A DNA stretch of 64,000 nucleotides. Origin: Malacoraja senta (Eukaryota). The stretch lies in NCBI GenBank assembly GCA_038087875.1, contig CM075989.1:19346001-19410000 (forward strand), in the 5' to 3' direction. The stretch's first letter is position 1. Each line of letters begins with the position of its first letter. Below, one piece after another: positions 1-59,727 of the stretch. The notes beneath the pieces are model-generated. The model did not search any database, was not told the DNA's origin, and saw nothing but the letters and a program-made list of their open reading frames with translations. A program made the translations under genes and the position numbers.

Positions 1-131
1 AGTCTGAAGAAGGGTCTCGACCTGAAACGTCACCCATTCCTTCTCTCCGGAGATGCTGCCTGTCCCGCTGAATTACTCCAGCATTTTGTGTCTACTTTCA
101 ATTTAAACTAGCATCCGCAGTTCTTTCCTAC
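1..131 (+). mobile_element. Penelope-like element terminal-repeat fragment with minimal hammerhead core
   Basis: CTGAAGA(4-10)-A-GGGTCTCGACCT-GAAAC(24-28)-GTC, then the tail GATGCTGCC...TTACTCCAGCA...GCATCCGCAGTTC; the same module follows the GIY-YIG coding sequence at 14096-14635. Confidence 0.8.
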
Positions 132-262
132 ACTATTTAGGTGGCAATTTTTGTTGTTATTTCTGGTATCAGTGCAATACTAACAGTAGATTTAGTTCAA
201 GTGAAAAAGATAGTTGATGCTTATTGACGCATTGTGAGTCACAAACTGCACAAGTTTGGAAC

Positions 263-392
263 ATGTGTTGGAAGGAACTGCAGATGCTGTACAGCAGGAC
301 AGGCAGCATCTCTGGAGAGAAGGAATGGGTGACGTTTCGGGTCAAGACCCTTCTTCAGTCTGAAGTTACTCCAGCATTTTGTGTCTATCTTC
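263..392. mobile_element. Inverted pair of Penelope-derived terminal-repeat fragments
   Basis: Minus-strand copy (GACGTTTCGGGTCAAGACCCTTCTTCAG, 331-358) directly abutting a plus-strand remnant (CTGAAG-TTACTCCAGCATTTTGTGTCT). Confidence 0.7.
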
Positions 393-1416
393 AAGTTCAG
401 ATCAGTCGGACACAATAATGTTTATGAGAGAGCATTGGTCTAGTTTGTGAATTCACACTGTACATTGCAAAGCAGCAATTCATAAACTTTGTAGATTGAA
501 TATTAATACCTATATAGCTCTTGTGCTTAAACCTGTAACATAATAATTGAAGTCAATGGGGTTTACTAACAAGGATTTCTACAAGAAACTATTCAATGTT
601 TTACCTTTAATTCTGAAGCTGATTTAGTCAAGTTTAATAATCGCCATCTTCTGTTTAAATGGTAGGCTGAAAGGTTTATTTTTTTTACTCTAGCATACAC
701 CATCCAATTTGTTGTGTATCTTGATCATAATAAGAGTGGAGTTAGAGTCCATTCATTCTTCCTGCCTTCCACCATTCCATATCATAATGAGTCTTTACCT
801 CAGCCACTTGACTGTACTCACCTCATATCCCTTAATAGCTGAAGATGTATTGATCTGCTTGAGTTTATTCAGTGACTGGGCCTCTTGCATAGAGAATTCT
901 GAGGATTCTCTAATCTCTGGGTGAAGTTTCTTCATCTTCCAACTTGAATTGTCAACCTCCTATTTTGACACTGAGAACCCCGACACTGAGCAAGAGAAAA
1001 CAGTATTCCACAATCTATCCTATCAATCCACAGAAAAATTGTGCACGTTTTAATGTGATCACGTTTCATTCCACGAAACTCAAGTGCAGCGTATTGGTCG
1101 ATTTGCTTAAACAAGGTATGTGAAAAAGCAATGAGATGAGCAGCAATAATGAGTTTTAAATGACAAGGGAGCAAATTAGGTGATCACCATGTTATGTGTT
1201 GCTTTACTTACTAGTGCAAAGGTACACAAATGAACACATCATATGCTACATGATAAATCAATAAAATGAGTCATTTAGCTTTAAGCAATTCTGAGGACAC
1301 AAAAAAATACAGAGCACAAGGTGAACGAGGGTCTATATTTACTCTAGCAAATGACGAGTCAGTAACTATATATAATTGGAAAATAATTAACATAACGTTA
1401 TAATTATGTTGATTAT

Positions 1417-4400
1417 TGCAAAGGCTACTGGGGAGACTTTAAACTAGAATGGTTGGGGGGAGGGACTCAAATAGAGAATGCTATTAGACAGTGTGTGAGG
1501 CAGGAGGCAGAGAAGGAAAGCACTCAGACCCAACATGTAGGGGGGAAAGAAGAAAACAATAATAAACAGATAATAAGAGGTGGTGGGGTTCTTAAATGGG
1601 TGATCAGAGAAACAGAGGGGTGTAAAATGCGGGCGGAAGCAATAGGTAGCAAGGTAAAAAGTAAAAGTGGCAGGCAGACAAATCCAGGGCAAAAATCAAA
1701 AAGAGCCACTTTTCAACATAATTGTATAAGGGGTAAGAGCGTTGTAAAAACAAGCCTGAAGGCTTTGTGTCTCAATGCAAGGAGCATTCGTAATAAGGTG
1801 GATGAGTTGAACGTGCAGATAGCAATTAATGATTATGATATAGTTGGGATCACGGAGACATGGCTCCAGGGTGACCAAGGCTGGGAGCTGAACATCCAGG
1901 GATATTCAATATTCAGGAGGGATAGAGAGAAAGGAAAAGGAGGTGGGGTAGCGTTGCTGGTTAGAGAGGAGATTAACGCAGTGGAAAGGAAGGACATTAG
2001 CTTGGAGGATGTGGATAGAGTTGCGAAACACTAAGGGGCAGAAAACGCTGGTGGGTGTTGTGTACAGGCCACCTAGCAGTAGTAGTGAAGTTGGGGATGG
2101 CATCAAACAGGAAATTAGAAATGCGTGCAACAAAGGCAAAACAGTTATAATGGGTGACTTCAATCTACATATAGATTGGGTGAATCAAATTGGCAGGGGT
2201 GCTGAGGAAGAGGATTTCTTGGAATGTATGCGGGATAGTTATCTAAACCAACATGTAGAGGAACCAACGAGAGAGCAGGCTATTCTAGACTGGGTATTGA
2301 GTAATGAGGAAGGGTTAGTTAGCAGTCTTGTTGTGCGTGCCCCCTTGGGCAAGAGTGACCATAATATGGTTGAGTTCTTCATTAGGATGGAGAGTGACAT
2401 TGTTAATTCAGAAACAACGGTTCTGAACTTAAAGAAAGGTAACTTTGAGGGTATGAGACGTGAATTGGCCAAGATTGACTGGCAATTAGTTCTAAAAGGG
2501 TTGACGGTGGATATGCAATGGAAGGCATTTAAAGACTGCATGGATGAACTACAAAAATTGTTCATCCCAGTTTGGCAAAAGAATAAATCAGGGAAGGTAG
2601 TGCATCCGTGGATAACAAGGGAAATCAGGGATAGTATCAAAGCAAAAGATGATGCGTACAAATTAGCCAGAAAAAGCAGCATACCAGAGGACTGGGAGAA
2701 ATTCAGAGACCAGCAGAGGAGGACAAAGGGCTTAATTAGGAAAGGGAAAATAGATTATGAAAGAAAACTGGCAGGGAACATAAAAACTGACTGCAAAAGT
2801 TTTTATAGATATGTGAAGAGAAAGAGATTAGTTAAAACAAATGTAGGTCCCTTGCAGTCAGAAACAGGTGAATTGATCATGGGGAACAAGGATATGGCGG
2901 ACCAATTGAATAACTACTTTGGTTCCGTCTTCACTAAGGAAGACATAAATAATCTGCCGGAAATAGCAGGGGACTGCAGGTCAAAGGAGATGGAGGAATT
3001 GAGTGAAATCCAGGTTAGTCGGGAAGTGGTGTTGGGTAAATTGAATGGATTAAAGGCCGATAAATCACCAGGGCCAGATAGGCTGCATCCCAGAGTACTT
3101 AAGGAAGTAGCTCCAGAAATAGTGGATGCATTAGTGATAATTTTTCAAAACTCTTTAGATTCTGGAGTAGTTCCTGAGGATTGGAGGGTAGCAAACGTAA
3201 CCCCACTTTTTAAGAAGGGAGGGAGAGAGAAAACGGGGAATTACAGACCAGTTAGTCTAACATCGGTAGTGGGGAAACTGCTAGAGTCAGTTATTAAAGA
3301 TGGGATAGCAGCACATTTGGAAAGTGGTGACATCATTGGACAAAGTCAGCATGGATTTACGAAAGGTAAATCATGTCTGACGAATCTTATAGAATTTTTC
3401 GAGGATGTAACTAGTAGAGTGGATAGGGGAGAACCAGTGGATGTGTTGTATCTGGACTTTCAGAAGGCTTTCGACAAGGTACCACATAAGAGATTAGGCT
3501 ACAAACTTAAATCACACGGTATTGGGGGTTCAGTATTGATGTGGATAGAGAACTGGCTGGCAAACAGGAAGCAAAGAGTAGGAGTAAACGGGTCCTTTTC
3601 ACAATGGCAGGCAGTGACTAGTGGGGTACCGCAAGGCTCAGTGCTGGGACCCCAGCTATTTACAATTTATATTAATGATCTGGACGAGGGAATTGAAAGC
3701 AACATCTCCAAGTTTGCGGATGACACTAAGCTGGGGGGCAGTGTTAGCTGTGAGGAGGATGCTAGGAGACTGCAAGGTGACTTGGATAGGCTGGGTGAGT
3801 GGGCAAATGTTTGGCAGATGCAGTATAATGTGGATAAATGTGAGGTTATCCACTTTGGTGGCAAAATCGGGAAGGCAGACTATTATCTAAATGGTGGCCG
3901 ATTAGGAAATGGGGAGATGCAGCGAGACCTGGGTGTCATGGTACACCAGTCATTGAAAGTAGGCATGCAGGTGCAGCAGGCAGTGAAGAAAGCGAATGGT
4001 ATGTTGGCCTTCATAGCAAGAGGATTTGAGTATAGGAGCAGGGAGGTTCTACTGCAGTTGTACAGGGTCTTGGTGAGACCACACCTGGAGTATTGCGTAC
4101 AGTTTTGGTCTCCAAATCTGAGGAAGGACATTATAGCCATAGAGGGAGTGCAGAGAAGGTTCACCAGACTGATTCCTGGGAGGTCAGGACTTTCATATGA
4201 AGAAAGACTGGATAGACTTGGCTTATACTCGCTAGAATTTAGGAGATTGAGAGGGGATCTTATAGAAACGTACAAAATTTTTATGGGGTTGGACAGGCTA
4301 GATGCAGGAAGATTGTTCCCGATGTTAGGGAAGTCCAGGACAAGGGGTCACAGCTTAAGGATAAGGGGGAAATCCTTTAAGACCGAGATGAGGAAAAACT

Positions 4401-4649
4401 TTTTCACACAGAGAGTGGTGAATCTCTGGAACTCTCTGCCACAGAGGGTAGTTGAGGCCAGTTCATTGGCAATATTTAAGAGGGAGTTAGATGTGGCCCT
4501 TGTGGCTAAGGGGATCAGGGGGTATGGAGAGAAGGCAGGTACGGGATACTGAGTTGGATGATCAACCATGATCATATTGAATGGCGGTGCAGGCTCGAAG
4601 GGCCGAATGGCCTACTCCTGCACCTATTTTCTATGTTTCTATGTTTCTA
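1417..4649 (+). mobile_element. CR1-clade LINE, 5'-truncated in ORF1, near-complete ORF2
   Basis: APE motifs (LNARSIRNK, GITETWL, GDFN, SDHN), RT motifs ([34 protein letters not shown]), CR1-type C-terminus (RTRGH...FFTQRVVNLWNSLP), 3' tail of (TTCTATGT)n-type repeats. Confidence 0.97.
1453..4552 (+). pseudogene. CR1 ORF2 (APE endonuclease + reverse transcriptase), single frameshift near 2009-2020
   Basis: ORF 1453-2034 has the APE N-terminal half; ORF 2009-4552 (847 aa) continues in another frame with the rest of APE and the RT, with no further stops. Confidence 0.9.
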
Positions 4650-6275: not shown

Positions 6276-7212
6276 ATTTTTATGCACATAATAATAAAAA
6301 AAACATTACATAACAATGAATAAATAATATCAACTTGACATAAAGAACACTGGCTACAGGGTGCTGCCATAGTCACATTAGCTTTTTCAAGCACTGTTCT
6401 GGTACTCGGAGTTCAGAACTTAGCCTTGGCTCCCAATCAAACTCAATTAGGCAGCTCCATTACAGTTTGGTCATCTAAATAGAGGGAAATCTTGCAGTAC
6501 GGGGTCAGACATCCCAAACTTTCATGAAGTTAGACCAATTCTGATTACAGATACATCTCCAGCTCAGCCTGTTCTCCTGACTATTATTAATGTAAAGCAA
6601 ATGATAAAAAAAGATCAAATGACTTGAGAATTTGGAAAATATACTTCCATAAAATGCAAATGTAACATTTACTTTGGACCCAAATAGGTTAGAGGACCAT
6701 ATATTCCAAAACAAACCTAGAAGCACTAATGTCCAGAAAGACTCAGGGATCTATGTGCATAGTGGACAAGGATGTGATAGGATTGCTTTCAAGATATCAG
6801 GGAGAGACAAGAGTGTTTGGAAGAAATAATTTCCATTGGTTGAAAGTTCAAAATCTGGAGACATGCCTAAAAATTTGAACCAGTCTTTCCAGACAAAGTG
6901 TGGTTGGAGTTAAAATGTAACCTGTAAATTGGATTTAATGCTATGGCGATAGTTAATTTAAAATCTGTGATAGACTAGTTTTTAAAAAATGAAAAAAAAT
7001 ATGGGCAAAGGAAGGTATGTGAAGCTAAATTAATCATGATTTCACTGACGTGTGGGAAAAGGCTAGATGGGCTAAATCACTTATTCCTGTTCCTACATTG
7101 TTATGTTCACAATTCTGGTTTTGTTGGATGGTGGAATTAAATGTAGCCATTGAAAATTAAGAGATAATTCTTGTTCTGGAAGAAGTTGTGTGACTTCCAC
7201 AATGAATGGATT

Positions 7213-7355
7213 AGGAAGGAACCGCAGATGCTAATTTAAACCGAAGATAGACACAAAATGCTGGAGTATGGGTATCGAAGGAAGTCGGGTCTGAAGAAGG
7301 GTCTCGATCTGAAACGTAACCCATTCCTTCTCTCCAGAGATGCTGCCTGTCCCGA
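7213..7355. mobile_element. Inverted pair of Penelope-derived terminal-repeat fragments
   Basis: Minus-strand tail (GGAAGGAACCGCAGATGC...ATGCTGGAGTA), then plus-strand CTGAAGAAGGGTCTCGATCTGAAACGTA. Confidence 0.7.
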
Positions 7356-8439
7356 TGGACCAAGTTTCATTTGCCTGGGAGTGGTGAGAAAAGGTTCAAG
7401 TCATAACTGCAGACTGAATGTGAACAACTTGAATTAATGCATAACATTTGACTCTCATTTTCTAAGTATGTTCATAAATACTAATTAATTGTTTATCAGG
7501 CTTAATTGTAGAATTCCGCATTCAATAAGTGTGTATCATAGCAATTAATTTGTTTACTTCCAAATCAGAATAATTTGAATTGACTCCATGAAGCACATCA
7601 TTCAAGTCCAAGAAAATAGTGCATAAATCGAGATGCCAAATAACAGTTAAAAAAAAAAAAATTCAAAATGATTTTCTTTAATAAAAGTGCACTCATAGCT
7701 TACCATGTTAAGAACAGAAACAAAGTCCATTATCCACTTTACTTCAGCATGAGCTTCTTTATGAAGAGAATGTTTAATAGTACAGTGTTGGAGTTCATGA
7801 CAATCGATACACCATCTTGCTGGCTACAAAACAATGTGTGAAGACAACTGGGGTTAACCCCATTTGTTACTGCATTGTACACTATGTGCACATGGTGTCA
7901 TCCTGATATATATACACATCCATAATTAAAACTGTGCTAGTGAATTTGCAGTGGTATCAGTTTCATTATAACTGATTGGCACAGAGATGCTTGTACCTAC
8001 GAGAATAAATTATTTAATTTATTCTCTGGGGTTTGATTCTGAGAGTCTTTTAAATGACATGATTCTGATTTAATTTTAGCTGAAATATAAGCGGCATTTA
8101 GCTCCAGCAGGACCTCGTGTATTTAATCTGGCCTCCCTCTATGGAGCACGTTAGCATACTCATGGATAATTACTGCTTTACACAACTATTCTGTTCATCA
8201 GCAAGTCTGTGTCAGAGTCTGCATTTTCTTTTCATGTTTTACCATGGCAATCACTACATTCAGGCTTCGTATGACAATGCTATCTTTTCTTCCACCACAC
8301 CAAACTCAGAATTCAAGTTGCAGTGGTTAGATGAGCTAAGCAGAAAAGACTCCGATACATGATTTCTAAGACTAATCAAGAATCTGCTAACTCAGCATTT
8401 GCAGTGAAGACTGAAGTCCAATTCATCTACATCGAGCTA

Positions 8440-8829: not shown

Positions 8830-9790
8830 TTACAGATACAGGAATCTGGTGCAAAAAAAATGGAGCAATCCTGGAATAACTCAGTGGATCAGACAGCATC
8901 TGTGGAAATGAAGTGGATAGTTGGTTTCAGGTTGAGACCATTCATTTGGACTGAAAAGGAGTGAGGAAGTATCACGGAAAAGGTATCAAGAGGTGGAAGT
9001 GGGGAGACAAGAACCAGCAAATAACAGGTGGAAACAGGTGAAGAGAGATTGATTGGCAGATAAGAGCCAGATGAGAAGGGAGGGGTGTACATTGCAGAAG
9101 AGCCTGGGATGTGATAAGTAGAGAACAGAAGTCTGCAGATTCTGTAATCAGATGGGAAAGGAAGTTGAAGAGTGGAATTTAATAAAGAAGGATGGTGGCA
9201 GATCGACAATAGACAATATGTGCAGGAGTAGCCATTTGTCCCTTCGAGCCAGCACCACCATTCAGTGTGATCATGGCTGATCATCCACAATCAGTACCCC
9301 GTTCCTGCCTTCTCCCCATATCCCTTGACTCCGCTATCTTTAAGAGCTCTATCTAACTCTCTCTTGAAAGCATCCAGAGAACCGGCCTCCACCGCCCTCT
9401 GAGGCAGTGACCAAGAGTGGAAAGGGATGAGCAGTGGGGTGGTAGGTGATTCCAATGGGAGGAGTATACAAGTGATGAGCAGATGGTATACATATGGGGA
9501 GGGGAGAGAAACAGAGTGATAGGTATCTGGGGGGGGGGGGGGGGTGAGAATGCTGTGGGAGATAGCGAGTGTGTGAGAGAACCAGGGTTGATGGGGGATA
9601 CAAAAACTGAGGTGGCATGGTTTTCTTGAAATTGAAGAATGAGGTTGAGGTAGAGTATTTAGGCAGAATACTCCAGTTTGCGTTTGGCCTCAACAATGCA
9701 GTGGAGGAGTCAGAGAATAAACAGGTCGATGTGGGAAGGGGAATTAAAACGTGAGATCCAGATCTCCAGAGTGGACAGAGCTCTGGTGCT
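8830..9790 (-). mobile_element. Old Penelope-like fragment with a nested CR1 3' end (~9203-9407)
   Basis: Degenerate similarity to the 14096-14635 element; the internal segment matches the reverse complement of the CR1 3' UTR at 4500-4640. Confidence 0.55.
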
Positions 9791-12700
9791 CGACAAAGTT
9801 TTAATTTAAACAATTTTAAATGTTTTGTACTTAAGTGACAAAGTCACTTGTTGAAAACTGCAGACGTTCTAGCGTTGCACACATAATACCTTTCTTCTGA
9901 AACTGGCTGTTAAGGACTTCCATACATCAGCTTGGAAGTCTAACAAAATATGTGAGTGGGCACAGTTAATTCATTAGGCTTCCAAACAGAACTAATTCTG
10001 ATCATGCCCATTTTATTCAGAGTTGTACTTGAAAAAATGGTTGCTTGTCTCATTGTCAATGGAAAACATGAAAAAAGACTCAAATCCTGGCTTAAATTGC
10101 ATATTTATGTTAGAATGTTCTAATTTTCTGGGTGGAGGGTGTCGTGGGTGCAAGGTTATATTATTAAGACTTCACATGGATGTTAACAGAATAGGGAAGG
10201 ACAGTGCTCACAGAAGGCATGTTCTCAATGTTTGTCTCGACTCAGATGCTGCTGGATCTTCTGCACATAGCCAGCATTTTCTGTTTTTATTGCACATCTT
10301 TAGTTCCAATGTTTCTATTTAGCCTTTGGTTGAAATACTGTATACGTTTAGTGAAAGCACAGACAGTCTTGAATAGGTTATCCTCAAGAAATCATACATA
10401 GAGAGTAGGTGGTATTTGGAATGCACCGCCAGAGAATCAGGTGGAATCAGACACAAGCACTATGTTTAAGAGGCATTTAGACAGGCATTTAAATAAGCAA
10501 GACATGCAGGCAAATGGGATTAGTATAGATAAGGAAACTGGTGCTCTCTGACTGTGACTCTAAAAGTTGGAAGTTCAAATCTTGCTGACAGAGTTGTCAC
10601 GCAAATTTATTTGGTCTGGATAAAGAAGACACATCTTCTTGACCTGAAGCATCCCAGACTCTGGTGACGAGTCCTAAATATTGACAAGGGCTAATACTGA
10701 GCGGAAAAGTTCATTCCCAAAACTCGCCATGATAGCTGACAAAAATCGTAACCCCAGTTTTGCCTACTGCCAGAACAATAAGGATTTAATTGAAAACGTA
10801 AAACATCACAATCCTCTGCCCAAAGTTGAACAATGCTCTCTTTGGTTCAGCTCACCTCCTCCTAATAAAAGGTGTTACAATGGGAACCTCCACAAGTCTG
10901 AGTTTTCATGCAATAGGACCAGCATTCTTTGTTCTATCCATGTTTGTGTTCAGACATACTGTTACCATGAAACTTGCCATGACTGCTTGCCACCTCACTT
11001 TGGTTCACTCTCAACCTTCCACCGTCCCTCTGAAACCCAATGGAAGCTTGAAGACCACATCTGACCTTACACAGTATTTTATACCTTTCAGATTCAACAA
11101 TTATTTCAATAACTTTTTATCATCATTTTTGATTTTGCCCTTTTCATTTACAGCATCTCCATTCCGATTTCTTGTGTAGTAAATATTTTGCCTACATTGT
11201 CATACCCTTTTATTAATTCATCACTCTATCCCTCACTCCACATGAGCTTTTCTTCTATTCTTTCACTCTATCACCCATTGCTCTCGTTTTCCTCCAACTT
11301 CCTGCTGTTCGCACTGAATGTTAGCACTCTCGCTCCACAGACACCTGACCAGCATTTTGCACTCTTCTAGCGAAGCATCTCTTCTGGATGGCACTTAGAA
11401 TCTATACAACAAATGATCATCTGCACTGAAGCATCAGCCTTGGGATCAAAAGAGTTATGTACTTGCAATTCACCATCCATTAAGCTAATTCAGATTCATA
11501 GATAGCTCTCATTATTATAGCTCTCAAGAATTATTATTTATTTTGTTGGCCCAATTAATCTCAAATCAAACAATACCAATGTTTGACCCTCATGCAGCAT
11601 CGCCAGTCTTTTATATTTGTCTTACTACCATGTGCAAAATGGAAGTCATATTTTCTCATATCACGTTTACTATTTCATTAACCACAAAGTATGCCTAAGT
11701 CCAAGTACTATAATGGTGACACATGAAAGAGAACTGCAAATTGGATAGGCTCAGGTGCTTGGTGGCCAAATTTACCTTTAAAAGCAGTTTCATTGAAACA
11801 ACATCCATCATATCACTAGCCAGGTTTTGTCATGTCTCTCCCCCACCCCCACCCCCTCTTTCCTAGCTTTCTCCCCCCCCCCCACCCTTACAACAATTAG
11901 TCTAAAGGGTCCAAACCCAAAACATCACCCATTCATGTCTTCTACAGATGCTGCCTGACTCCAGCACTGTCTTTTTTTGGAAACCGGCATCTGCAGTTCC
12001 TTGCGTCTCCATCATAATATTGATCCAAATGCTGATAAATTAAACCACTGCATATTTTATTTCACTTCGGCATTCTTATTATTCCATTAGATGAAAAATA
12101 ATGAATATATCTTTCTATTGTCATGTTTGTGGTTTCCTCAAGTGGTGCTTTGTAGTTAGAAGTTAAATGCAATTTCTCTCCAATGAATCGTTTAAAGATG
12201 TCTTACTATGTTTTTCCAGATTCAACTTGTGAAGTGCTGGCTCTGACTGAATACTAAAAGAATAGAAAAATACACGAATAGGCCCTTTGGCCTAAAGCAC
12301 AGGAACATGCCCTTTCTCCACAATATTAGTGCCAACCATGACGCCGATCAAAACTAATCCTATCTACCTGCACAAGGTCCATTTCCTACCCGTTCATATG
12401 TCTGTCTAAATATCTCTTAACCCTCCCCTGGCAATATGCTTCAGACATTCACCACATAGCAAAGAATTTGCCTCATAAATCTCCTTTAAACCTTAAACTT
12501 TAAACCATACTTGCGCAAGGCATTTGAGAAACAGGAGATAGCACCTGCAGCTCATTTTCTACGAGTTCAACATCTCTGCTCATATAATGAGTCTTTCTCT
12601 GCCTTTCAAATCAGGTTTCTGAGAACAATTACAAACCAATCCATTGGAAATACCCCAATAACTGCTTTATGATTGCTGTGATTTGATACCATTTAATTAC

Positions 12701-14095: not shown

Positions 14096-14635
14096 GTGTT
14101 TAAGAAGGAACTGCGGATGCTGGAAAATCGAAGGTAGACAAAAGTGCTAGAGAAACTCAGTGGGTGCAGCAGCACCTATGGAGCGAAGGAAATCGGCAAC
14201 GTTTCGGGCCAAAACCCTTCTTCAGACTGATGTTGGGGGGGGGGGGGGGGGGCGGGGAGAAGAAAGGAGAAAGGAACAGGAGGAGCCCGAGGGCTGAGGG
14301 GGAGCTGAGAAGGGGAGGAGACAGCAAAGGCTACCGGAAATTGGAGAAGTCAATGTTTATGCCGCTCGGGTGCAGACTGCCCAAGCGGAATATGAGGTGC
14401 TGCTCCTCCAATTTCCGGTGGTGCTCACTCTGGCCATGGAGGAGGCCCAGGACAGAAAGGTCGGATTCAGAATGGGAGGGGGAGTTGAAGTGCTGAGATA
14501 CCGGGAGATCAGGTTGGTTAATGCGGACCGAGCGGAGGTGTTCGGCGAAATGATCGCCAAGCCTACGCTTGGTCACACCGATGTAGATCAGCTGACATCT
14601 AGAGCAGCGGATGCAATAGATGAGGTTGGAGGAGA
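14096..14635 (-). mobile_element. Penelope-like retroelement 3' portion: GIY-YIG endonuclease plus terminal repeat with hammerhead core
   Basis: Minus strand translates SSNLIYCIRCSRCQLIYIGVTKRRLGDHFAEH...SQHFN...KLEEQHLIFRLGSLHPSGINIDF (PLE GIY-YIG domain), followed by CTGAAGAAGGGTTTTGGCCCGAAACGTT. Confidence 0.92.
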
Positions 14636-40184: not shown

Positions 40185-40312
40185 GTAAGAAAGAACTGCA
40201 GATGCTGGTTTAAATCAAAGGTAGACACAAAATGCTAGAGTAACTCAGCAGGTGAGGCAGCATCTCTGGAGAGAAGGAATGGGCGACGTTTCAGGTTGAG
40301 ACCCTTCTTCAG

Positions 40313-43984: not shown

Positions 43985-44360
43985 GTAGATAGACACAAAA
44001 TGCTTGAGTAACTCAGTGGGACAGGAAGCATCTCTGGAGAGAAGGGATGGGTGACGTATCGGGTCAAGACCCTTCTTCACTCTGAAGATTATGGGGAGAA
44101 GGCAGGAAAATGGGATCAGGAGGCAGAGATCAGCCATGATTGAATGGCAGAGTAGACTTGATGGGCCGAATAGCCTAATTCTACTCCTATAACTTGTGAA
44201 CTTGTGAGTCTGAAGAAGTCTCAGTCTGAAGAAGGGATTCGACCCAAAACGTCACCTAATGCCTTATCTCCAGATGATGCTGCCTGTTCCGCTGAGTTAC
44301 TATAGCATTTTGTGTCTATCTTCGATTTAAACCAGCATCTGCAGTTCCTTCTTACAGACT
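43985..44360. mobile_element. Inverted Penelope-derived pair enclosing a CR1 3' tail (44088-44207)
   Basis: Minus copy 43985-44080, CR1 3' UTR with (ACTTGTGA)n tail, plus copy 44223-44357. Confidence 0.75.
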
Positions 44361-44369
44361 TCCATATCA

Positions 44370-45450
44370 GTTCAGCCTAATTCTTGGTACTCCCACTTTT
44401 GAAACCCTTGTTTATCCTCTCTGCAAATCTAACAATCCCTCTCAGAATTGTACATGTTTCACTAAGATTTACCCCTCATTCTATTTTCTATAATAGATAT
44501 GTCCAACATGCCCAATATTTCTTCATCCATCAACTTCTCCATCCAACTTTATACTCTATATCCCTTGCAATAAAGGCTAATATTCCCTTAACCGTCCAAT
44601 TTCTTGCTGTATCTTCGTACTAACCTTCTTGCTTCTTATACTAGAGTTTCCATTGGCATTTGATTGCACCATTTTATTTTCTAACTATTTAAATAATTTG
44701 CTTTTCATTGTACCTTTCTATAATCAATTACCTTATCTCTTCCCACATAACATCGCAACTAATAACTTCTTCCCTGTTGTTCACGTAACCTATCTATATA
44801 TTTTTCTAAACTCTGGGTCCTCTTCCCAACCTCTCTAAGATACACTATATATTTAACTAGAGTTTTCTCAAGCGTATCAACATAGATTATAAATAGATGA
44901 GGCCTCAGCACTGATCCCTGTGGCATCATACTAGTTACTGGTCATTAATCTGAAAATGACCCATGTTTCCTGATTCTCTGTCTTCCATCTGATATTCAAC
45001 CCCCACATTCTGCACTCTTATTATGTGCAGTAACTTACATGTGGTACAATATCAAACGTCTTGGACCACATGCAACAGCCTTTGATGTGGTACATCATCC
45101 AATGTCTTCTGAAAATTAATGTAATATGTCTTTATATAATATATGTAATATTCCTTTACATCTGCCCGGCATGTTAATCCTCAAAGAACTTCAGCAAATT
45201 TGTCGGACACACTTTCTCTTTCACAAAACTATTAACTTTCCTTTATTGTCTTCAAAATGTCCTGATAATATCTTCTTAACAATGGACTCTAATCTTTTCC
45301 CAATGACAGCCACTATAATTTTATGCTTTCCGGCCCTCTCATTTTATTTGAACAGTGGTGTTGCATTTGCTGTGGTTTTACAAGTTTCCAGGACCTCTTC
45401 AGAATCCAGGGAATTTGGAGAGATTTTAACCAGCACATTCCCTATCTCTG
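44370..45450 (-). mobile_element. Old degenerate CR1 RT remnant
   Basis: GGCCTCAGCACTGATCCCTGTGG at ~44901 corresponds to minus-strand PQGSVL; other weak RT remnants flank it. Confidence 0.5.
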
Positions 45451-45792
45451 CAATCTGCTTATGTCTATTTCCATTTTAAAATATCTCCTCCTCCTGATCC
45501 CCCCACAATTCAAAAGGTATGATCCCCTCCCACCACCCCAAGCCCTGCACGGGTTCATTCATTAGACCAAATAACACAATCATTTTTGGTACCTTAAGGT
45601 AAAAATATTCTCTGCAATTGTCAGAAGGGATAGATAGGCCTTTGATATCTGCCTAGATTTCTGTGCTTGCATCTCTGGAATGGATGGCGAGGGAAGTTTT
45701 GGAGGGAAAAGTAGAATCAACTGAACAATGTATAACACAGTAATTAGATGAAGACCGAGGAAAAAACCTTCACCAACTTAAAAAATACTTAA

Positions 45793-46445
45793 GGGCGGCA
45801 CAGTGGCGCAGCAGCAGAGCTGCTGCATTACTGTGCCAGAGACCCAGCTTGATTCCTAACTATGGGTGGTGTCTATGCAGAGTTTGTACATTCTGCGTGC
45901 CTACATCGGTTTTCTCCAGGTGCTCCAATTTCCTCCAACATTTCAAATGGTCTCCCATTGCCGGTTTATCGGTTTCTGTAAATTGCCCCCAGTGTATAGG
46001 ATGCAAAAGTGGGATGACATAGAACTAGTGTATGGGTGATCGATGGTCAGCATCAGTGGGTCAGAAAGGGGCCTGTTTTCATGCTGTATCTCTAAACTAA
46101 CCTTGAACAGAATGGTGGAATAGATAGGGTAAATGCACGTCTATTACCCAGAATAAGGGAATATAGAACCAGAGGGCATAGGTTCAAGGTGCGTGGGAAA
46201 GATTTAATAGGAACACGAGGAGAAACTATTTCACACAAAGGCTGGTGGGTATAAGGAATGAGCTGCCAGAGGAAGTAGTTGAGTCAGGTACTGTAACAAG
46301 ATTTAAAAAGCCATTTGGACAGATACATGGTTTAGAGGGATATGGGCCAAACATACGCAGGTGGGACTAGTATAGATGGGTGATCTCGGTCAGCATGGGG
46401 AAGTTGGGTTAAAGGGCCTGTTACCATGCTATATGACTCTATGAC
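45793..46445 (+). mobile_element. V-domain SINE followed by a CR1-type 3' end
   Basis: GGGCGGCACAGTGGCGCAGC head to CTAAACTAA tail (~46100), then AGAACCAGAGGGCATAGG...TATGACTCTATGAC. Confidence 0.75.
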
Positions 46446-46849
46446 ACTTTATTTGCTTTTACCAGATGAGCACAGACTGAAGGCACAGAAGTAGAATTGG
46501 TATGAATTGCCCTAGTTTTGGGGCCACATTCATACACAATAGGCTGAAAGGCTTTGTACTGTGCTCTTATTTTCTATGTTTCCATTCTATGACATTAATA
46601 GAGTTAACAAACCATTTAAAGCTCCCAGTAAGATGCAGTTTATTTTTGAGGGGGTGGGTGATAACATTAACAAAGTGAAATGGGGGCAAGCTTGAATCTT
46701 TGTGGGGATGGTGGTAGAGTGGGAAGAAACTATAGAAATCCTACCTTTTGGATTAGGGGAGATATTACTAAATACAAACATGAGTGGAAGTTGATTCAAA
46801 GGACTGAGCCCCAATTTATTCACTATTGACAGTTCCATTACCTAATACA

Positions 46850-47200
46850 TACTCAGCCCACTGGCTCCACCTCTTCCTTTCTTCTTCCCACACCCCCACC
46901 CTCACATCAGTCTGAAGAAGGGTTTCGGCCCGAAACGTTGCCTATTTCCTTCGCTCCATAGATGCTGCCTCACCCGTTGAGTTTCTCCAGCATGTTTGTC
47001 TACATGCTCAACCAACCCTTCTCTTCAATTATCCATTCTGTTTTCTACAGTCAACAGCTCCAGGTCAGAATGTTATAGATTCCAGACATAAAGAGACCTA
47101 AGATAGATACAAATTGCTGGAGTAACTCAGTGGGTCAGGCAGCATATCTCGAGAAAAAGGTATAGGTGATGTTTCGGGTCAGAACCCTTCTTCAGACATC
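46850..47200. mobile_element. Opposed Penelope-derived terminal-repeat copies
   Basis: Plus copy with intact CTGAAGAAGGGTTTCGGCCCGAAACGTT (46912-46939); minus copy 47100-47197. Confidence 0.8.
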
Positions 47201-48074
47201 TTCAGTTCCAAAATCCTAGCTGACACCCAGAACAGTACTAAGATACCATGCACTTTCAGATTTGCTGTCATTTGGATGAAAAATTAAACCATACCATATT
47301 TTCTTTCTCAGGTGAACCCTGGGTCTATTCTGGTTATGCACCCAAACGTCCAGTGATCAGGGACAAAGACATTAAGCTCTGTGGAAGCAGAGATTGCTAG
47401 AGTAATAAATACTCTCTCATATTAGTTGTTTATCAAAGGAAGGAGTACTGAAAGGATCTCAGTCGAAATGAAGTTTTGAGAGAGAAAATAACCGTTTTCT
47501 TAATGAAAGGCTGGAAATAGCGGTGGAATGGGATTGAACAACTAACTGTGGGTATGTAGTTTGGCCTGAGTCATAAATATTCCATGGTCCTCCAATCAGC
47601 ATCACCATAACAAATGATGTGGTCATTATCATGTTATTTATGGGTGTTTGCTGTGTAGAAATTGGCTGTATTTACAACATTATAATTATAATTACTTTTC
47701 AAATGTACTAATTTAGTGTAAAATTATCTGTGAATTGCTGAAAGCTATGTAGGAAGAGCAAGCATTCCTTTCGTTCACTTATAACTGTAGATAGTTTGCA
47801 AAATAATGACCGTTCAAGAAAATCTCTGTAATATTAATTATCAATTGATCTCCAGGATTGTTCCACATGAAAGTAAGATGAAGCATAATCATTGGCAGAG
47901 CTAGAACATAATTGAATTAGTGAATCTGTTCTGATGAATGTTCCAGGGCCTGATATCTGCCTGCCTGTTGAGTGTTTTTGTTTCTTGATTTCAGATTAAC
48001 GGCGTCTACATTAAAAAAAAAAAAAAAAGATTTAGTGGCAATTGCCAATAAATCCATTCCTGATCTGGGGCATC

Positions 48075-48368: not shown

Positions 48369-51300
48369 AAATGCACTTTTTAGTGGCCACTGTTTAATGC
48401 ACTACTCTATCTCCGAATGAATCTTTGATGCAGAGTGAAATGCAGCATATACAGAATAGAAACAGCCTATTCAGTCTAACCAGTCCATGCCACAATTATG
48501 TTCCAGTCAAGACTCTTGTCTTTCTTATTCAATTCCATCAGCACAGCACTCCATTGTAATCTCTTTCATGTGCTTTTTAGCATCCAACAGCATTTATTAT
48601 ATTTGTCTGAACTACTGCTAGTAACGTTCCACGTGCTCAACTCTCTAGATAGAAGTGGCTTCTAAACTCTTGATTCCTACCAAAAACGATAATGATTTTG
48701 AATATCTGTTAAATCTTCTCAGAATTTTGTTTCCTCCAATATTTAAAAAAAAAGGCTTCTCCATTCTTTTCAGAAACTTTCACCAATGATACCAATCTGG
48801 TGTTGGTGTGGAGACACAAGGAACTGCACATGCTGGAATCTTGAGCAAAACACAAAGTGCTGGAGGAACTCTGCGGGTCAGGCAGCATCTGGGGAGGGAT
48901 GGGACAGGTGGTGTTTCAGGTCTGAAGAGGGTCCTCCCCCCCACCCCCCCGAAACATCACCTGTTCATTCCTTCCACAAATGCGTTTTTGCACAGATCTT
49001 GTGTTGTATATCTTTATTATTCTGAATAGAGTTTATTGTGGAAATTACAAAAAGATTGAAGAACCAGCCACATTTTCTCAAAACCACTGCATTGCACATT
49101 GTATTATTCTCCAGTATAATCTTTCACAGACAATTTACAAATGTATTGAAATCATATTTAAGTAGTATAATTATCTTGGCAGTACAGTATGTTATCTATT
49201 AATCTTCTTAATTGACCTATAATGACTTGCCCTCAACAATTAATCTTTACAACATGCAGAGCCTCTGGTTAAAAGAGCTGTTTATGAAACTATCAGACGC
49301 CCAAAGTCACCGCCATTGCCAATTTCATTTGACCGAGGAAACAAAATGTTGGAGGGACTCAGTGGGCCAGCTGCATCCAGGAAGGGAATGGACAGATGAC
49401 ATTTCGGGTCAGCATCTTTCATTGCTTGTCCATTCCCTCCCCAGATGCTGTGTTTTGTTCTGGGTTCCAGCATCTGCAGTTTCTTGTGTCTCCATTTCAT
49501 CAGTCCCTATTCTGTTTATTAATTCTCTTTAAGCTTTTCTCCTTTTTGTTCTTTGACCAAATATATATCCTGCATCATGCTCCCTGCACATATCAATTCT
49601 GCCTACTCTCGATTTTGCCACTCTAGCTGAAAACTTAGCTCGTCTCGGTTTTAGTAATTTTCACATTCTTCAAGCTGTTCATTTGTAGAACCTAACAGCC
49701 CCAACAAATGATTTATACCCAAAATGTCATCAGTCATGTTTTCTTGCCAGATGGTGTTTGACCCGCCGTCTTCAACATTTTCCACTTTGCTGAGATCTTT
49801 TAATTTCAATCTCACGGGATCCGTCCTCATGTTTAGTTTCCCGTGTTCATATTACATCCATTTCTCATATCCCTGCAGCAACGACATAAATTCTTGAAAC
49901 AATTTGATTCTGTTGTCAAGATTGAAATTAGGTGAAAATGCAACTGCTGGCTCACAGAATTTGAACTAAGCAAGTGCCAATGTAATGCTGCCATTTAATA
50001 AGTAAAGCTGTTTCTGCCTGTAATAAATACTTGTTTTTAAAATTATTCTCCATTGCTTGATGTTTTTATTAGAAGATGTTAAATTGAAGGTGCCAGTGAA
50101 TTGTTATACCAGATGAACAGTTGTTATCAAAATCCCACTATTTTATCCTTCTCTGTTAAGTTGGAAAGGGTGCAGAAGGGATTCACCAGGATGTTACCTC
50201 GGCTTGAGTTATAGGGAGAGGTTGGAACTATTTTCTTTGGAGTATACTAGGCTAAGGAGTGACCTTAGGTGGACAAGATTATGAGAGGCATGGATAAAGT
50301 AAACGCTCACTATCTTTTATTTCCCAAGGTAAAAGATTCTAAATTTAGAGGGCATAGGCTTAAAATTATTCAAGAGGGACCATAGGGGCAACGTTTTCCA
50401 CTCAGAGGGCAGTCCATATCTAGAATGAGTAGCCAGAGGAAGCTTATAGAAGCAGATCCAATTACAACTTTTAAAAGGCATTTGGACAGATAAAGATAGT
50501 AAGGATTGAGAGGACTCTGCCGAACGCTGGCAAATTGGATGTCCAACATTCCAACTTGGTTGGTATGGACAAGGTGGGCCAAAGGGCCTGTTACCTTGTT
50601 GTATCACCCAAGGACTCTGATTTACTGAGGCAACAAATGGTTAAAGTAAATGAGGCCGATTCCAAATACATACATGTATTTTAATTATGTGTTTATTCAT
50701 GTGTTTATTAATGGTATATGGACACACTGATCTGTTTTGTAGTCAATGCCTACTATGTTCTGTTGTGCTGAAGCAAAGCAAGAATTTAATTGTCCTATCA
50801 GGGACACATGACAATAAACTCACTTAATCAATAAGAATTTAAACATTTTTCCAGGAATCAATAGACCAGGCACTCTCTTGTTTGAAAGCCACTTGCAAGC
50901 TTCCAACATAGGAATAGGAATACTTTATTGTCACATATGACTAGGCACAGTGAGATTATTTGCTTGCATACATAATGTATACAAATAGCAGCAACCTACA
51001 GCGCTGACAAAGTTACAAAGCATGCTGACTCCCCATGCTATATCATGAATTAATTCATGATTAGTTGATCGGACAAAGGTCTTCAAGTGTGTTCTCCAAG
51101 TTTCTGTTTCTAGCTGATGATGGAATCATGCAAGTCTGGAGCATTGTTACATATTTAATAAAGTGAGATCTTGTTTCCCCCAATTTCTTTTTCAGCAAGG
51201 GGTTAGTGAATGTGGGCCCTTTGGGAAATGTGGTTTGGGTTACGAGTTAAATCTTCAGGAGTTTGAACATTTTGCTAGCTACAGTTTCAAATGGAAAAGA

Positions 51301-52745: not shown

Positions 52746-55700
52746 TGGATTGTATTGTACAAGAAGGAACTGCAGATGCTGGAAAAATCGAAAGTAGACC
52801 AAAAATGCTGGAGAAACTCCACGGGTGAGGCAGCATCTATGGAGAAAAAGAATAGGCGATGTTTCGGGTCGAGACCCTTCTTCAGACTGTAATGTAAATT
52901 GTTGATAAATTAGATCAGGAATGAAGTGTACTGATCATGAAAGTAGTCTTTTGGATTTTTTCTTCTTCCAATGCCACATTCTTAATTACCACAAATATGT
53001 TTTTGAGCTGTCTTATTCAGCAGCAGCAACCCTTGTGACCTGATGCTTCCAATATCTCCGTGGTTTGACTGATCTCTACATAAGATATTACGAATCATAA
53101 CCCAAGTTCAAGTTCAAGTTCCATTTATTGTCACATACACCAATTGGTACAGTGAGATATGAGTTACCATACAACCATACGAATAAACGAATAAACCCGA
53201 GATTAGAATTGATGAAACTAGATCATGAAGACCATTAATAAATAAGTGGACTTTTGTTACGACAGTAGGACATCCTGGATGGCAGTAATCAATAATGAGC
53301 ATATCTATTGAATTGTTGAGATTGAATTTATGACCTTGGGCAACCTAATCCAGAATGATAATCATTACTCCATTATACTCAGTGGATTTCGAATACTCGT
53401 GTTGTGGACCTCGAGTCAGGATCAGAGTCAAGCTGGAATGGCAGTTTGTACGTTCTGTGTGGAGTTTGTACGTTCTCCCTGTGACCACGTGGGATTTCGC
53501 CAGGTGCTCTGGTTTCCTCCCGCATTCCAAAGACGTACAGGTTTGTAGGTTAATAGGCTTCGGTAAAATTGTAAATTGTCCCTAGCGTGTAGGATAGTGC
53601 GAGTATATGGGGTTTGCCTGGACTCGGTGGGCCGAAGGGCCTGTTTTCAGCGGTGTAACTATAAACTCTGAAACCTAAATGCTGAAAATTGTTCTTGTGG
53701 AAGTCATGATTCTCCGTCATCTGCTCTTCAAATGATGCTATTCCCTATGCTATGTTCTTAGACAAAAATGCTCAGGAAATTATGTCACATTGTACTGAGG
53801 TACATTTGTTGCAATCAATAATATATTAGTGGTCCTGGACCAAGATATCTACTGAGGTGGATTTTCTTAGTGTCCTGTAGGGCTCCAACCTCCAAACCCC
53901 ATTTTAACTCACCGATTCATTAGTCACTTCTCAACTCAGGCACCAACCCTCCCCCTCCAACCACCATTGCACTCTGAATGCTTAAAGTCCACAATCAGGT
54001 CTCTGACTACAAACTTTTCTTCCACTGTGATCCACCTGGATTCAACCCAGATCTTTCCTTTAAATTCTGCAAAGGAAAACAGGCAATGGTCACGTAATGC
54101 CTTGCTATTTGATCATTTAACACATTTCCTCCAGAGCCAATAAATTGTTACTTAAACTTAAAGATAATGAGCAGGAAAGGATAAATTAAACAGATTTTAT
54201 GGGGGTTCACTAATAGTTCTATCCCATCAAACACAATGGTGAATATAATCAGCCATGATCATATTGAATGGCGGTGCTGGCTCGAAGGGCCGAATGGCCT
54301 ACTCCTGCACCTATTGTTATGTTTACTTAAATGTGCACAAAGGTCTCCCATTTGCAGGTTTCAATTGAGAAATTCTATCATGCATTGGATACAGTGTTAG
54401 AACAAGGACTGGAGCAGGGGCATAGACTATTTTCTAATTGGGGTGAGAATCAAGAAATCGGAGGTGTAAACCATTACATTTTCTTTTACCATTTCGATTC
54501 TGTACATTCACTGTTGTTGGAAATTGGTCAGCATGTCCATAGGCTGGGCTAAATATTAACCTTAAAAGGGACATACAAGCCTTCATCATTAATGGCCTCT
54601 TTCTAGAAATGGGGGATAAAGCTAATTTAGAACAATACACTTCTGGCACTGAAGATGAGCAGAATATCACATTATGACAAGATGACCTCAGTAGGCAAAG
54701 GAGCATCTAAAGATTTTAATATAGATGGAGTAGGAACAGTTTCTAAACTTCAAAACTCAAGATAAAATAAGTAGTTTCCTGTTTTCCAATGCATTTTGCT
54801 GGTTAGGCCTAGTTTTAATCTTGAAGCGATTACAAATATTTTACTAGATTCAAAACAGACCTTGTAACTGCAATAAAACATGCTACAGGTATTCTTTGAT
54901 TAGTATCCAAAGTAAGTGAAAATATTTACTTTGATACTATTACTTGAAACTTTATGGGGAAACTAGCTCAACATGTTCCAACTGTTCGGGGGTAAAACGT
55001 TATTTAATGTGCAGTTCATAAAGCAAAAAAAAACGACTACCACATTCAGTCAAGGTGCTAGTCTCTGTCCCAGTCTGAAGGGTTCCAACCCAAAATGCAG
55101 TTTGCCCTTTCCCAAGACAGATGCTGCCTGACCCACTGAGTTCCTCCAACACTTTGTGCTTTGCTCAAGATGCTAGTCCCATTATATTAGAAACATAGAA
55201 ACATGGCCAATAGGTGCAGGAGTAGGCCATTCAGCTCTCCGAACCAGCACAACCATTCAATATGATCACGGCTGACCATCCAAAATCAGTACCCCGTTCC
55301 TGCTTTCTCCCATTATCCCTTGATTCCATTAAGGGATATTATTATGAAAAGTTGTGATTTTGCAAAAACAAACTCGTCCATCAGGTTTCTGAAATTCAAG
55401 TTAATTTGAAAATGGACACTTGGAACTCCTTACATTTTCCGCAAGCAAAATTTAAATCTTATCCATTGTCAAAATGTCACGCGCTAAATTAATTTGTACA
55501 TACTACAGGAACCAAGGCCAGACTACTAAAGAAACAGAAGAATCATCGCTATCGTTCCAAGTTACAATCTGACAAGATGGTCTGACCCTGCAATAAATGT
55601 ACTCCAATTCTGCTTAAACAATTTGAACTCATAGAGCAATTTCAAAAGGGGTACAGCATCTAATATTTCGCTTGGGCAGCTTACAGCCCAGTGGTATGAA

Positions 55701-56496: not shown

Positions 56497-56639
56497 TCTT
56501 TATATCACCGTCTATATCTCTTGTTTTCCTTATCCCTAACCAGTCTGAAGGGTCTTGACCCGAAACGTCACCCTTTCCTTCTCTCCAGATATGCTGCCTG
56601 TCCCACTGAGTTACTCCAGCTTTTTGTGTCTATCTCCAC

Positions 56640-57335
56640 TATACATTGATGTCGCCAAAGTAGAGATGGTTGAAAATTTCAATTTCTTCGGAGTAAATAT
56701 CACCAACACTTTGACCTGGAATAATCATATTGAAGCAATGGTCAAGAAAGCATAAGAATGCCTCTACTTCCTTAGAAGGGTTTTGAAGTTCGGCATATCC
56801 CCAACAATCCTCATCAACTTCTAGAGATGTGCCATAGAAAGCATTTTATTAGGATGCATCTCAACATGGTTTGGGAACAGCTCCATCCAAAATCACAAGA
56901 ACTTGCAGAGTTGTGGACATTGTCCAGACCATCACGCAAACTAACCTCCCTTCCATTGACTCCATCTACATTTCACGCTGCCTCGACAAGGCCACTAGCA
57001 TAATCAAGGACTAGTCCTACCCTCTTCTCCCCTATCACATCAGGCAAAAATGTACAGAAGTTTCAATACACATAACCCAGTTGACTGTGCCTGAACACCT
57101 CTGTCAGTGGATCACCAACTTCCTGACAGACAGGAAGCAGCATGTGAGGCTGGGAAAGTACATCTCGGACCCGCTGGCCCTCAGCATAGAAGCACCGCAG
57201 AGCTGCGTACCCTCCCCTCTCCTTTACTCTCTCTACACCAATGACTGCGCCTCCACAGACACCTCTGTCAAGCTCCTCAAATTTGCAGACGACACAACCC
57301 TGATTGGACTGATCCAGGATGGGGAGGAATCTGTT
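56640..57335 (+). mobile_element. Rex1/Babar-like LINE fragments
   Basis: VEMVENFNFFGVNITNTLTW...; LCQWITNFLTDRKQHVRLG...LLKFADDTTLIGLI. Confidence 0.75.
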
Positions 57336-58288
57336 CCATCTTTGTATCCGATGATTTGAGTAGCATTTTTCTTCCCCAAAATACTGGTATCTGTTCTGTT
57401 CATGTTTCACAGTGGATACAGTTCTTGCACATCGAATCAAAATTCATTAGTTGTAGCGTCCCACAACTTATTTTAACAACACTATGATAGAACTTTATTT
57501 ATCTCAGGAGGGAAATTGATCTGCAAAACACAAAATACATGAAACATGAAATTAAAGTGACGAATGGAAAGGATTTGGAATGTGCAAAGAATTGGGACGA
57601 GGGGGGGGGGGGGGGGGGGAGGGGTCTGAAAAAGGGTCTCGACCCAAAACACCACCCATTCCTTCTCTCCAGAGATGCTGCCTGGCTCGCTGAGTTACTC
57701 CAGCTTTTTGTGTTTATCTTTGGTTTAAAACAGCATCTGCAGTTCCTTCCTACACTCTTCATCAATATTAACAGGCGTATTGCACAATATTTAATGTCAC
57801 TACACTTGCCCATTGGTCTCCAAGTATATGCACTGTACTATGCAAAAGGATTTCTGGTCCTACCATGCTTATCAACATAGTGTCCGATCAAGCAATATCA
57901 GCTAAAGCTGTTGGCAATGCTCAGTTAATCATTGCTGTGTACCATGATTTTAAATTGCCAGTGAGATATTAAGTGATGCTATTAATTATGGAATACTATT
58001 AATGCCGCATTATACTCTGAATAATTAATTACTTCAATCGAGAAACCATCTCGTTCATGACGCCATGAAGTGCTTTTTTTTTAAACTCTGGAATTTGATG
58101 GCTGTTCAATGTGCAGCCTTGTTGGAAAGAGTTAGCTATTGTAGCTTCTGCTGATGGAAAATTGGTCAAAAACTCTCACATGCCGGGTTTTCATATTGCA
58201 AGAGGAAATTTCCTACCTACATGGTGAATTTGGACTTCACCGAATCACCGGATTTGGAATCATCGAAGATGAAAGAACAGTTTTGTCC

Positions 58289-58488
58289 NNNNNNNNNNNN
58301 NNNNNNNNNNNNNNNNNNNNNNNNNNNNNNNNNNNNNNNNNNNNNNNNNNNNNNNNNNNNNNNNNNNNNNNNNNNNNNNNNNNNNNNNNNNNNNNNNNNN
58401 NNNNNNNNNNNNNNNNNNNNNNNNNNNNNNNNNNNNNNNNNNNNNNNNNNNNNNNNNNNNNNNNNNNNNNNNNNNNNNNNNNNNNNNN
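58289..58488. other. Assembly gap (200 N)
   Basis: Run of exactly 200 N, probably a fixed-size scaffold join. Confidence 1.
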
Positions 58489-59727
58489 GGCATGATACTC
58501 CAAATCGCTAACCTGATTACATACAAGTTGCCAGCTTGGTTGTTTATTTTCTTTTGACCTCCAGCAAGTTTTAGTTCATTTATCATTCACAAAGTAACAA
58601 AGGTTGTTCAGAATGGAGATTTATGACTTTGGGACTGACATTCATGAAGAATGTCATAGCCCAGTATTCTTCTCGGATATTGCCAGCAAATAAAGCAAAG
58701 CAATGCAACCTGGTGTTAAACAGCATGGAAACAGGCCCTTCACCCCACCGAGTCCATGTCAGCCAAGTTGGCACACTGGGCTGGGCTCCCATTTACCTCC
58801 ATTTGAACAATAGGTCTATACTCTTTCCATACATCTGTCCAAATGTCTTTTAAAAGTCCCAACTGTATCCACTTCTACAGCTTCCCTTAGCAGCTCATTC
58901 TAAATATGGACTAGCCTCCGAATGGAAAAAGTTGCCCCCCCCCCTTCCTAAACCTCTCCCTTTTCACTTTCATCCTATACCTTATTGTTTTAGAATCCTC
59001 TACCCTGGGATAAAGACTGTGTTCACTTTATTCATGTCCCTCATTATTTCGTACACCTCAGTAAGGTCACCCCTCAGTCTCCTACACCCCAAAGAAAACA
59101 AAAATCCCATCTGTCCAATTTCTCCCCATAACTCAAGCCCACAAGCCTAGGTAACATCCTGGGGAATCTCTTCTGAAGCCTTTTTCATTGATGACATCCT
59201 TCCTATCTCTAGGCGACTTGAACGGCACACAGTAGAACAGACAACCCCCTAGGTTGTGTCTGAACATGCATCTCTGGAGCTGCAAGGCAGCAGCAGTACG
59301 ATACCCATTCTACCCCCGTGCTTCTCTCCCACCCATTGTTTGCTGAGCCACGTGCTTGGTGGCGTCTCCTCTTGCACATGCATATCTCTGCAAATCTGTC
59401 CTGGGCCCAGTAAAGTTCATCAATGCCTCTACTTCCTGACAAGATAAAGGACATTCAATGTGTTGGCCAATACACTGTCGAACTTGGATAGGCGACATTT
59501 TGGGTCAGGGTCCTTCTTCAATCTGAAGAAGGGTCCAGACCCAGAAATCACCTATTCATATTCTCCAGATGCAGTCCAGCCAGCCAAGTTATTCCAGCAC
59601 TTTGTGTCATTTTTTGTAAATTAGTATCTGCAGTGCCTTGTGTCTACACTGTCAGACTTTACTGCTTACTCCCCCCTACTCCATCAGCCTGACCTGAATC
59701 ATCACCCATCCATGTCCTGACCTGCTG

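Follow-up and report, generated by a model that had tools for sequence, protein, structure and literature searches.

Minimal hammerhead ribozymes (min-HHRs) have been reported in the Penelope-like elements (PLEs) Xena, Poseidon, and Neptune of fishes, mostly as dispersed single motifs with some pairs on opposite strands; they combine CUGANGA plus an extra base, a G10.1-C11.1 pair, GAAA, a palindromic C-G without loop III, and GUH (PMC4209133). The same combination characterizes an abundant family of short repeats in the genome of Malacoraja senta, which was analyzed in a stretch of 64,000 nucleotides (hereafter the window; assembly GCA_038087875.1, contig CM075989.1, positions 19,346,001 to 19,410,000 of the forward strand). 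The repeats come from a Neptune-type PLE with several subfamilies and correspond to its end segment, which bears the hammerhead. Their ribozyme is of a known kind and the dispersed copies are neutral debris, and the ideas of a preliminary description of the window, that the motif cuts host pre-mRNA or behaves like a retrozyme, add little; the value of the family lies in the ends of its copies. These suggest that the units of 90–135 bases are probably run-off complementary DNAs (cDNAs) from reverse transcriptase (RT) starts within the 5′-terminal repeat of a transcript that remained uncut and whose own 5′ end lies at TCAGT, just before the ribozyme.

Parts of this organization are known from other systems. 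The Poseidon element PAc of Anolis carolinensis also has two insertion ends that flank a 30–40-base tail, ~90–130 bases after the core. Its reverse transcription starts at two internal sites bounding the tail, extends both target strands, and mainly uses uncut RNA; cleavage needs protein, and the hammerhead is dispensable for insertion. That short copies start at one 5′ position is not described in the parts of that study considered here (Frangieh et al. 2024, PMC11167929). Endonuclease (EN)-bearing PLEs of the Neptune and Nematis type share with the M. senta family a CX2-5CxxC linker, a C-terminal GIY-YIG domain, partial tandems, head-to-head inverted copies, a one-sided tail, short duplications, solo pseudo-long terminal repeats (pLTRs), and an initiator (Inr)-like motif in the pLTR; the M. 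senta family differs in that 90–135-base units make up most insertions and have one start position (Craig et al. 2021, PMC8557442; Arkhipova et al. 2013, PMC3846280). Metazoan non-LTR retrozymes are likewise non-coding, PLE-related, and equipped with a type I hammerhead, but they form tandem units of 150–450 bases with mostly canonical cores and circular RNAs, whereas the copies studied here are dispersed, either single or head-to-head (PMC7229834; bioRxiv 10.64898/2026.07.22.740005). A literature search, which did not cover Repbase or Dfam, found no prior description of a fixed 5′ start of short copies.

The parent element is represented in the window by a 5′-truncated copy on the minus strand that retains the 3′ end of a Neptune-type open reading frame (ORF) with the GIY-YIG endonuclease (14331–14645). 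It is followed by the pyrimidine-rich 3′ untranslated region (UTR) of the pLTR (14231–14330), by TCAGT just before C3, which is Inr-like, marks the start boundary of short copies, and supplies the 5′ strand of a 2-bp stem I (14226–14230), by a UUCG-type core with an intact G10.1-C11.1 pair and predicted cleavage after 14198 (14198–14225), and by a hairpin block that extends to 3′ end site 1 (~14133) and, with an optional 35-base tail, to site 2 (14098–14197). The preliminary description had placed the motif, at 14096–14635, just downstream of a GIY-YIG ORF and proposed a Penelope origin; both are borne out, as the core starts 105 bases after the stop on the same strand and the ORF has relatives that bear an RT. 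The GIY-YIG score of the fragment lies below the Pfam cut-off (E = 0.0018; 19 vs 22.6 bits); its identity rests on 149 other scored copies (among 92,245 first-look candidates in the genome) that are 89–96% identical; the longer ones among them reach upstream across a CX4CxxC linker to an RT domain. A perfect fold-back palindrome at the truncated 5′ end of this copy (14611–14658; 23-base arms, 2-base spacer) indicates that fold-backs form also inside the ORF.

In near-complete copies, the core is followed by the hairpin block, tail, ATG, RT, linker, EN, stop, pyrimidine tract, and again a core, so that a pLTR stands at both ends of the parent. The core lies in the pLTR on the ORF strand. Unlike PAc, in which the ATG is at stem II, the element has its ATG ~170 bases past C3, and its linker is of the Neptune type (PMC11167929). 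The EN stop precedes the core in 45 copies of CUCG and UUCG types alike, separated from it by a 3′ UTR of 72–226 bases (278 in one tandem entry) that is divergent between subfamilies but remains 84% pyrimidine. RT and C-terminal GIY-YIG are encoded by a single ORF, with a natural frame of 460 amino acids (aa) in which both domains score below the Pfam cut-off (RVT_1, E = 0.027; GIY-YIG, E = 7e-4); the intervening linker, CNRKRCYTC, fits the CX2-5CxxC criterion. The parent is probably a Neptune rather than a Nematis element, going by this linker and an RT motif. In three copies of the element, the N-terminus of the ORF, upstream of the RT, holds a Pro/Ala-rich tandem repeat of 27 bases and variable copy number.

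The core agrees with the published min-HHRs in every sequence feature, in line with the minimal type I hammerhead first proposed for it. The extra base after A9, the absence of loop III, the 2-bp stem I, and the need for a dimer, all named at that stage, are likewise supported, but what was then inferred is the published definition and already known (PMC4209133). Clustering of 239 copies on columns downstream of the core yielded eight groups, and CUGANGA(H)...GAAA...UH with G10.1-C11.1 is present in all eight consensuses, two of them with a CpG-decay change. Helix II has 4 bp, where the published motif calls for at least 3–4 bp (93.8% of cells paired, one-sided changes only), 15.2-16.2 is palindromic without loop III (GAAAC-GUY), and helix I has 2 bp (G-C plus U-A or U-G) that are paired in 91.5% of cases, which is not above shuffles and involves no compensatory change. 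Instead of the two subfamilies initially described, there are at least eight clusters, with CUCG, UUCG, or CCCG as loop II; a U-G rather than a C-G pair closes the UUCG variant. The family also differs from the 56 published motifs, none of which is from a cartilaginous fish: helix I there usually has 3–5 bp (3–6 bp in the 11 vertebrate motifs), and the six with 2 bp have two G-C pairs, whereas one pair is A-U or G-U here; the published account stresses variable core length, whereas 58 of 62 descriptor matches have a fixed core of 28 bases; and 4,000–9,000 copies per genome compare with roughly tenfold more in M. senta (PMC4209133).

Conservation of the core over its flanks, which had been put forward as a test of function, is found only in part. 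CpG decay aside, the eight consensuses differ at 4 of 28 core positions, always in ways that a hammerhead tolerates, and at 10 of the next 19 bases (p = 0.009), but the core is not less variable than positions +48 to +84 (7/37, p = 0.74), and none of its pairs shows two-sided compensatory changes or pairing above shuffles. Within clusters, single-copy cores mutate as fast as the downstream flank in three of four tests. Because subfamily cores are conserved while single copies decay like their flanks, the sequences indicate that the master elements kept the core, whereas single dispersed copies are passengers that decay neutrally. Searches against Rfam gave no match in the window at gathering score, and when E values up to 10 were admitted (40000–48000), none of the 34 matches was to a hammerhead family; a consensus fold of 24 copies did not contain the hammerhead but a single hairpin, with GGGU paired to a downstream ACCC (covariation term −0.2).

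Densities and 5′ ends were determined for the window and 40 scattered 10-kb stretches (399,600 bases), leaving out the adjoining 100 kb of the contig on either side of the window, where many copies occur twice, ~22–32 kb apart and with identical flanks, owing to segmental or assembly duplication. The hammerhead motif is real and far above chance. A tail-inclusive profile has 31 matches at 26 loci of the window, five of which are head-to-head pairs (30 matches with a profile made from window copies). The scattered stretches hold 164 matches (0.41 per kb), equivalent by extrapolation to some 0.8 million copies in the 1.94-Gb assembly; reversed sequences gave no profile matches and no intact cores. 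Of two 28-base cores counted as exact matches, the genome contains 18,728 and 19,101 occurrences (4 and 6 times in the scattered stretches, 3.9 expected for each; no control matches), and the strict descriptor is passed by 22 cores in the 399,600 bases, or ~1e5 genome-wide by extrapolation. These numbers confirm the more than 20 dispersed copies and the SINE-like density (SINE, short interspersed element) of the preliminary description. All six cores that it had called well preserved were recovered in place and on the same strands, but only 331–358(−), 14198–14225(−), and 46912–46939(+) keep G10.1-C11.1, whereas in 4–31(+), 40285–40312(−), and 43350–43377(−) a CpG change of C11.1 to T leaves a G-U wobble.

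The 5′ ends pile up just before the core (positions counted from C3, the first base of the core). Of 167 scored copies, 54 have an inverted partner upstream. Among the 113 non-inverted copies, 36 extend past −20, 16 start at −20 to −11, 46 at −10 to −1, 10 at +1 to +15, 3 at +16 to +25, and one each at +26 to +35 and beyond. As +26 to +35 comprises the cleavage site, a start of copies at that site was rejected (1/113 vs 46 at −10 to −1). The match to TCAGT fades from 0.93 at C3 to 0.78, 0.70, 0.56, and 0.35 at −1 to −4 in 54 short copies, whereas it is 0.94–0.97 in 32 extended ones. Apparent recurrent 5′ ends at −476/−491 were an artifact of a shortened reference and disappeared with a longer one.

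The 3′ ends fall into two groups ~35 bases apart, at +84 to +106 (145 of 290 copies) and at +118 to +131 (119 of 290); the second is bounded by the end of the model, yet the alignments diverge right there. Target-site duplications of 10–18 bases, searched only in the neighborhood of the unit ends, flank 16 of the 290 copies (0.3 expected), including 36773–36862, which means that units were inserted whole; 15 of the 16 inserts start at about −11 to +5. Almost all head-to-head pairs (30/32) consist of exactly one long and one shorter arm (p about 3e-8), compared with 47 long copies among 121 solo copies, and many fold-backs turn exactly at TCAGT.

A transcript starting at TCAGT, three bases before the core, would carry the unit at both ends. 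Reverse transcription that starts in the 3′ copy would generate ordinary 5′-truncated elements, and a start in the 5′ copy would give a run-off product of 95 or 130 bases; use of both RT sites, primed from two nicked target strands, would result in the head-to-head pairs, each arm a separate cDNA. By analogy with the anole element, RT may start at the two 3′ sites. Because the 5′ starts lie just before the ribozyme and not at the cut site, the copies were likely made from uncut RNA. The TCAGT start likely marks the transcription start of the element.

Several observations weigh against this origin by run-off. The sole raw RNA run, a fragmented polyA library from a related species of which ~6% was read and which represents mixed copies, contains no pile-up of transcript starts; a step in read depth at TCAGT is not used as proof, because upstream subfamily divergence also lowers the depth there. 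The polypyrimidine tract and CAG can also be read as a 3′ splice site, as before the hammerhead of Drosophila virilis. The 54 short copies had been chosen for covering +1 to +11, and chance extension against the 22 references blurs 5′ ends by up to ~10 bases. One cluster (8 of 8 copies short) has no extended copy in the sample, and in one cluster the core decays more slowly (p = 0.03). Among 12 distinct, non-tandem copies that include the element body, only three start at +1 to +4 and nine inside the unit; two of these nine begin close to the cleavage site (+25, +32). Of the 30 loci with the body, about half are partial tandems that reach, over varied lengths, far upstream of TCAGT, so template jumps or self-insertion are needed.

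Other origins of the short units appear less probable. The units might be independent non-autonomous elements, SINE- or retrozyme-like, with their own transcription and self-cleavage, possibly via circles. In favor, short copies are more numerous than extended ones (83 vs 34), show target-site duplications themselves, and dominate the RNA reads; however, they include the cleavage site and start before it instead of beginning at it, and short and EN-linked copies belong to the same subfamilies, which renders independence unlikely. Retrozyme behavior also finds no support in the arrangement of copies (five same-strand adjacent pairs among 198 matches, no tandem arrays, and none among the tandem repeats of the window), nor does a separate SINE, as short copies lack a common upstream head and seven of eight clusters also hold pLTR-extended copies. 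Equally doubtful is an origin from spliced or splice-cleaved RNA, in which the boundary would be a 3′ splice site (pyrimidine tract, CAG, U-CUGA) and splicing would rebuild stem I. The persistence of pyrimidine in diverging 3′ UTRs and the precedent in D. virilis (PMC4209133) are in favor of splicing. Exon ends have a consensus of their own, and base use at −4 to −2 of short copies resembles it. By contrast, the EN end is joined directly to the core in none of 318 copies (two apparent cases are artifacts of one tandem entry; donors further upstream are outside this test), subfamilies do not all retain the GT at the stop codon, the duplications abut the core with no exon in between, and the polyA reads of the relative contain no supported splice-like joint. 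A stalling or annealing hotspot of RT at the C-rich tract or at the near-palindrome TCAGT-CTGAAG, rather than an RNA end, would fit the many fold-backs that turn there and the C run just upstream in UUCG-type subfamilies, but it is very improbable, because the boundary is the same in non-inverted copies and in subfamilies that lack a long C run.

Efficient cleavage in vivo, by which the hammerhead would process element RNA and cut host pre-mRNAs that contain sense copies, is also improbable, even more so than an independent unit. It would agree with a core that is invariant across the eight consensuses save for CpG decay, with the large number of descriptor-intact cores, and with a deficit of presumed sense relative to antisense reads (6–13% overall, ~8% over the core, ~24% over the tail) in the polyA library of the relative, which appears to be stranded (75 vs 5 reads in one bin of the body). 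However, short copies dominate these reads with nearly equal representation of both strands, the strand ratio is flat across the predicted cut site (0.91–0.93 before, 0.92–0.94 after), and read ends do not pile up at GUH, contrary to the expected RNA ends; evidence against a cut from fragmented RNA of mixed copies in another species is weak. In all six copies folded, the hammerhead lies 3.7–8.9 kcal/mol above the best fold, a competing hairpin in which the purine-rich core is mostly paired with pyrimidines past the cut site, and a modeled dimer (−13.3 kcal/mol, stem I not included) is inferior to the best co-fold (−25.0 kcal/mol). None of the 56 published motifs has a stem I as weak as this one, and published min-HHRs do not cleave as monomers and cleave only weakly as dimers (PMC4209133). 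With no strand step, an unfavorable fold, and neutral core decay in three of four clusters, the dispersed copies probably do not cut host RNA; the putative hammerhead probably works solely in RNA of the parent, dimerized and assisted by protein.

An additional, more tentative possibility is that the 28-base core doubles as an internal core promoter for RNA polymerase II, with TCAGT as Inr, loop II and stem II on the motif ten element (MTE), and stem III on the downstream promoter element (DPE). Counted from the A of TCAGT as +1, the motifs considered were Inr, CGANC at +18 to +22 (revised MTE), CGG at +27 to +29, and the DPE RGWYV at +28 to +32. TCAGTC is identical to the Drosophila Inr TCA+1GTY (6/6) and differs by at most one mismatch from the mammalian BBCA+1BW. 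CGACC at +18 to +22 fits the MTE box in seven of eight consensuses but is broken in the UUCG subfamily; the second MTE box matches at one of three positions, and CGTCA or CGTTG at +28 to +32 matches the DPE, said to be rare in humans, at four of five. The match is post hoc, concerns motifs only, and partly follows from the hammerhead consensus, but the CG of loop II is present in all eight consensuses although a hammerhead does not need it there. If true, a promoter role would account for the constant length of the core, the retention of CpG in loop II, and the 2-bp stem I, as the RNA would have just three bases ahead of the core, and core conservation would no longer be evidence of cleavage alone.

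The remaining copies in the window illustrate the same arrangements. Head-to-head pairs are located at 264–397 (intact core 331–358), 7210–7357 (decayed core 7291–7318(+)), 41278–41471 (one long, one shorter arm), 48815–48984 (an older subfamily), and 59486–59641 (turning at TCAGT). Short copies with a tail comprise 1–133(+), which contains core 4–31 and has an inverted partner just left of the window, and 40183–40315(−), with core 40285–40312. The 90-base copy at 36773–36862(+) is flanked by 10-base target-site duplications (36763–36772 and 36863–36872) and sits inside another repeat. A pLTR-extended copy of the UUCG-type subfamily (43032–43242(+)) is arranged tail-to-tail with a short copy (43277–43381(−), core 43350–43377), and a partial pLTR copy (46852–47005(+)) contains the intact core 46912–46939. 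Further single copies are found on the minus strand (8859–8945, 16498–16565, 19166–19238, 43986–44083, 47094–47197, 49338–49422, and 52756–52888) and on the plus strand (11904–12004, 16955–17059, 40976–41068, 44222–44357, 55076–55161, 56547–56640, and 57623–57755).

The window also contains an 866-aa open frame with endonuclease and RT (Pfam Exo_endo_phos_2, RVT_1) at 1952–4552(+), presumably a CR1-like long interspersed element, and more fragments near 41497–42629; a Tc1/mariner transposase remnant (HTH_SB, DDE_3) at 27968–29523 between two ~210-base repeats; and an integrase-bearing ORF of the LTR-retrotransposon type (33823–35331(−); rve, Integrase_H2C2) with flanking repeats (region 33434–35350). 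There are tandem repeats of 64 and 30 bases (31715–32200 and 32637–32817), a 200-base assembly gap (~58290–58490), and GC-rich islands at 38864–39300 and 21155–21800, the first of which has a 36-base repeat containing TGACGTCA and is possibly a host promoter.

The copy ends bear on how PLEs rebuild their end repeats and on what their hammerhead does. With one fixed start, two fixed ends, and pairs of long and short arms, the hundreds of thousands of insertions lead one to expect a transcript that starts at a precise position and serves as template without being cut. If the core is indeed also the promoter, the ~0.8 million stubs would be strong-stop-like cDNAs and would document, across the genome, a retrovirus-like step of run-off and jump in the replication of PLEs.

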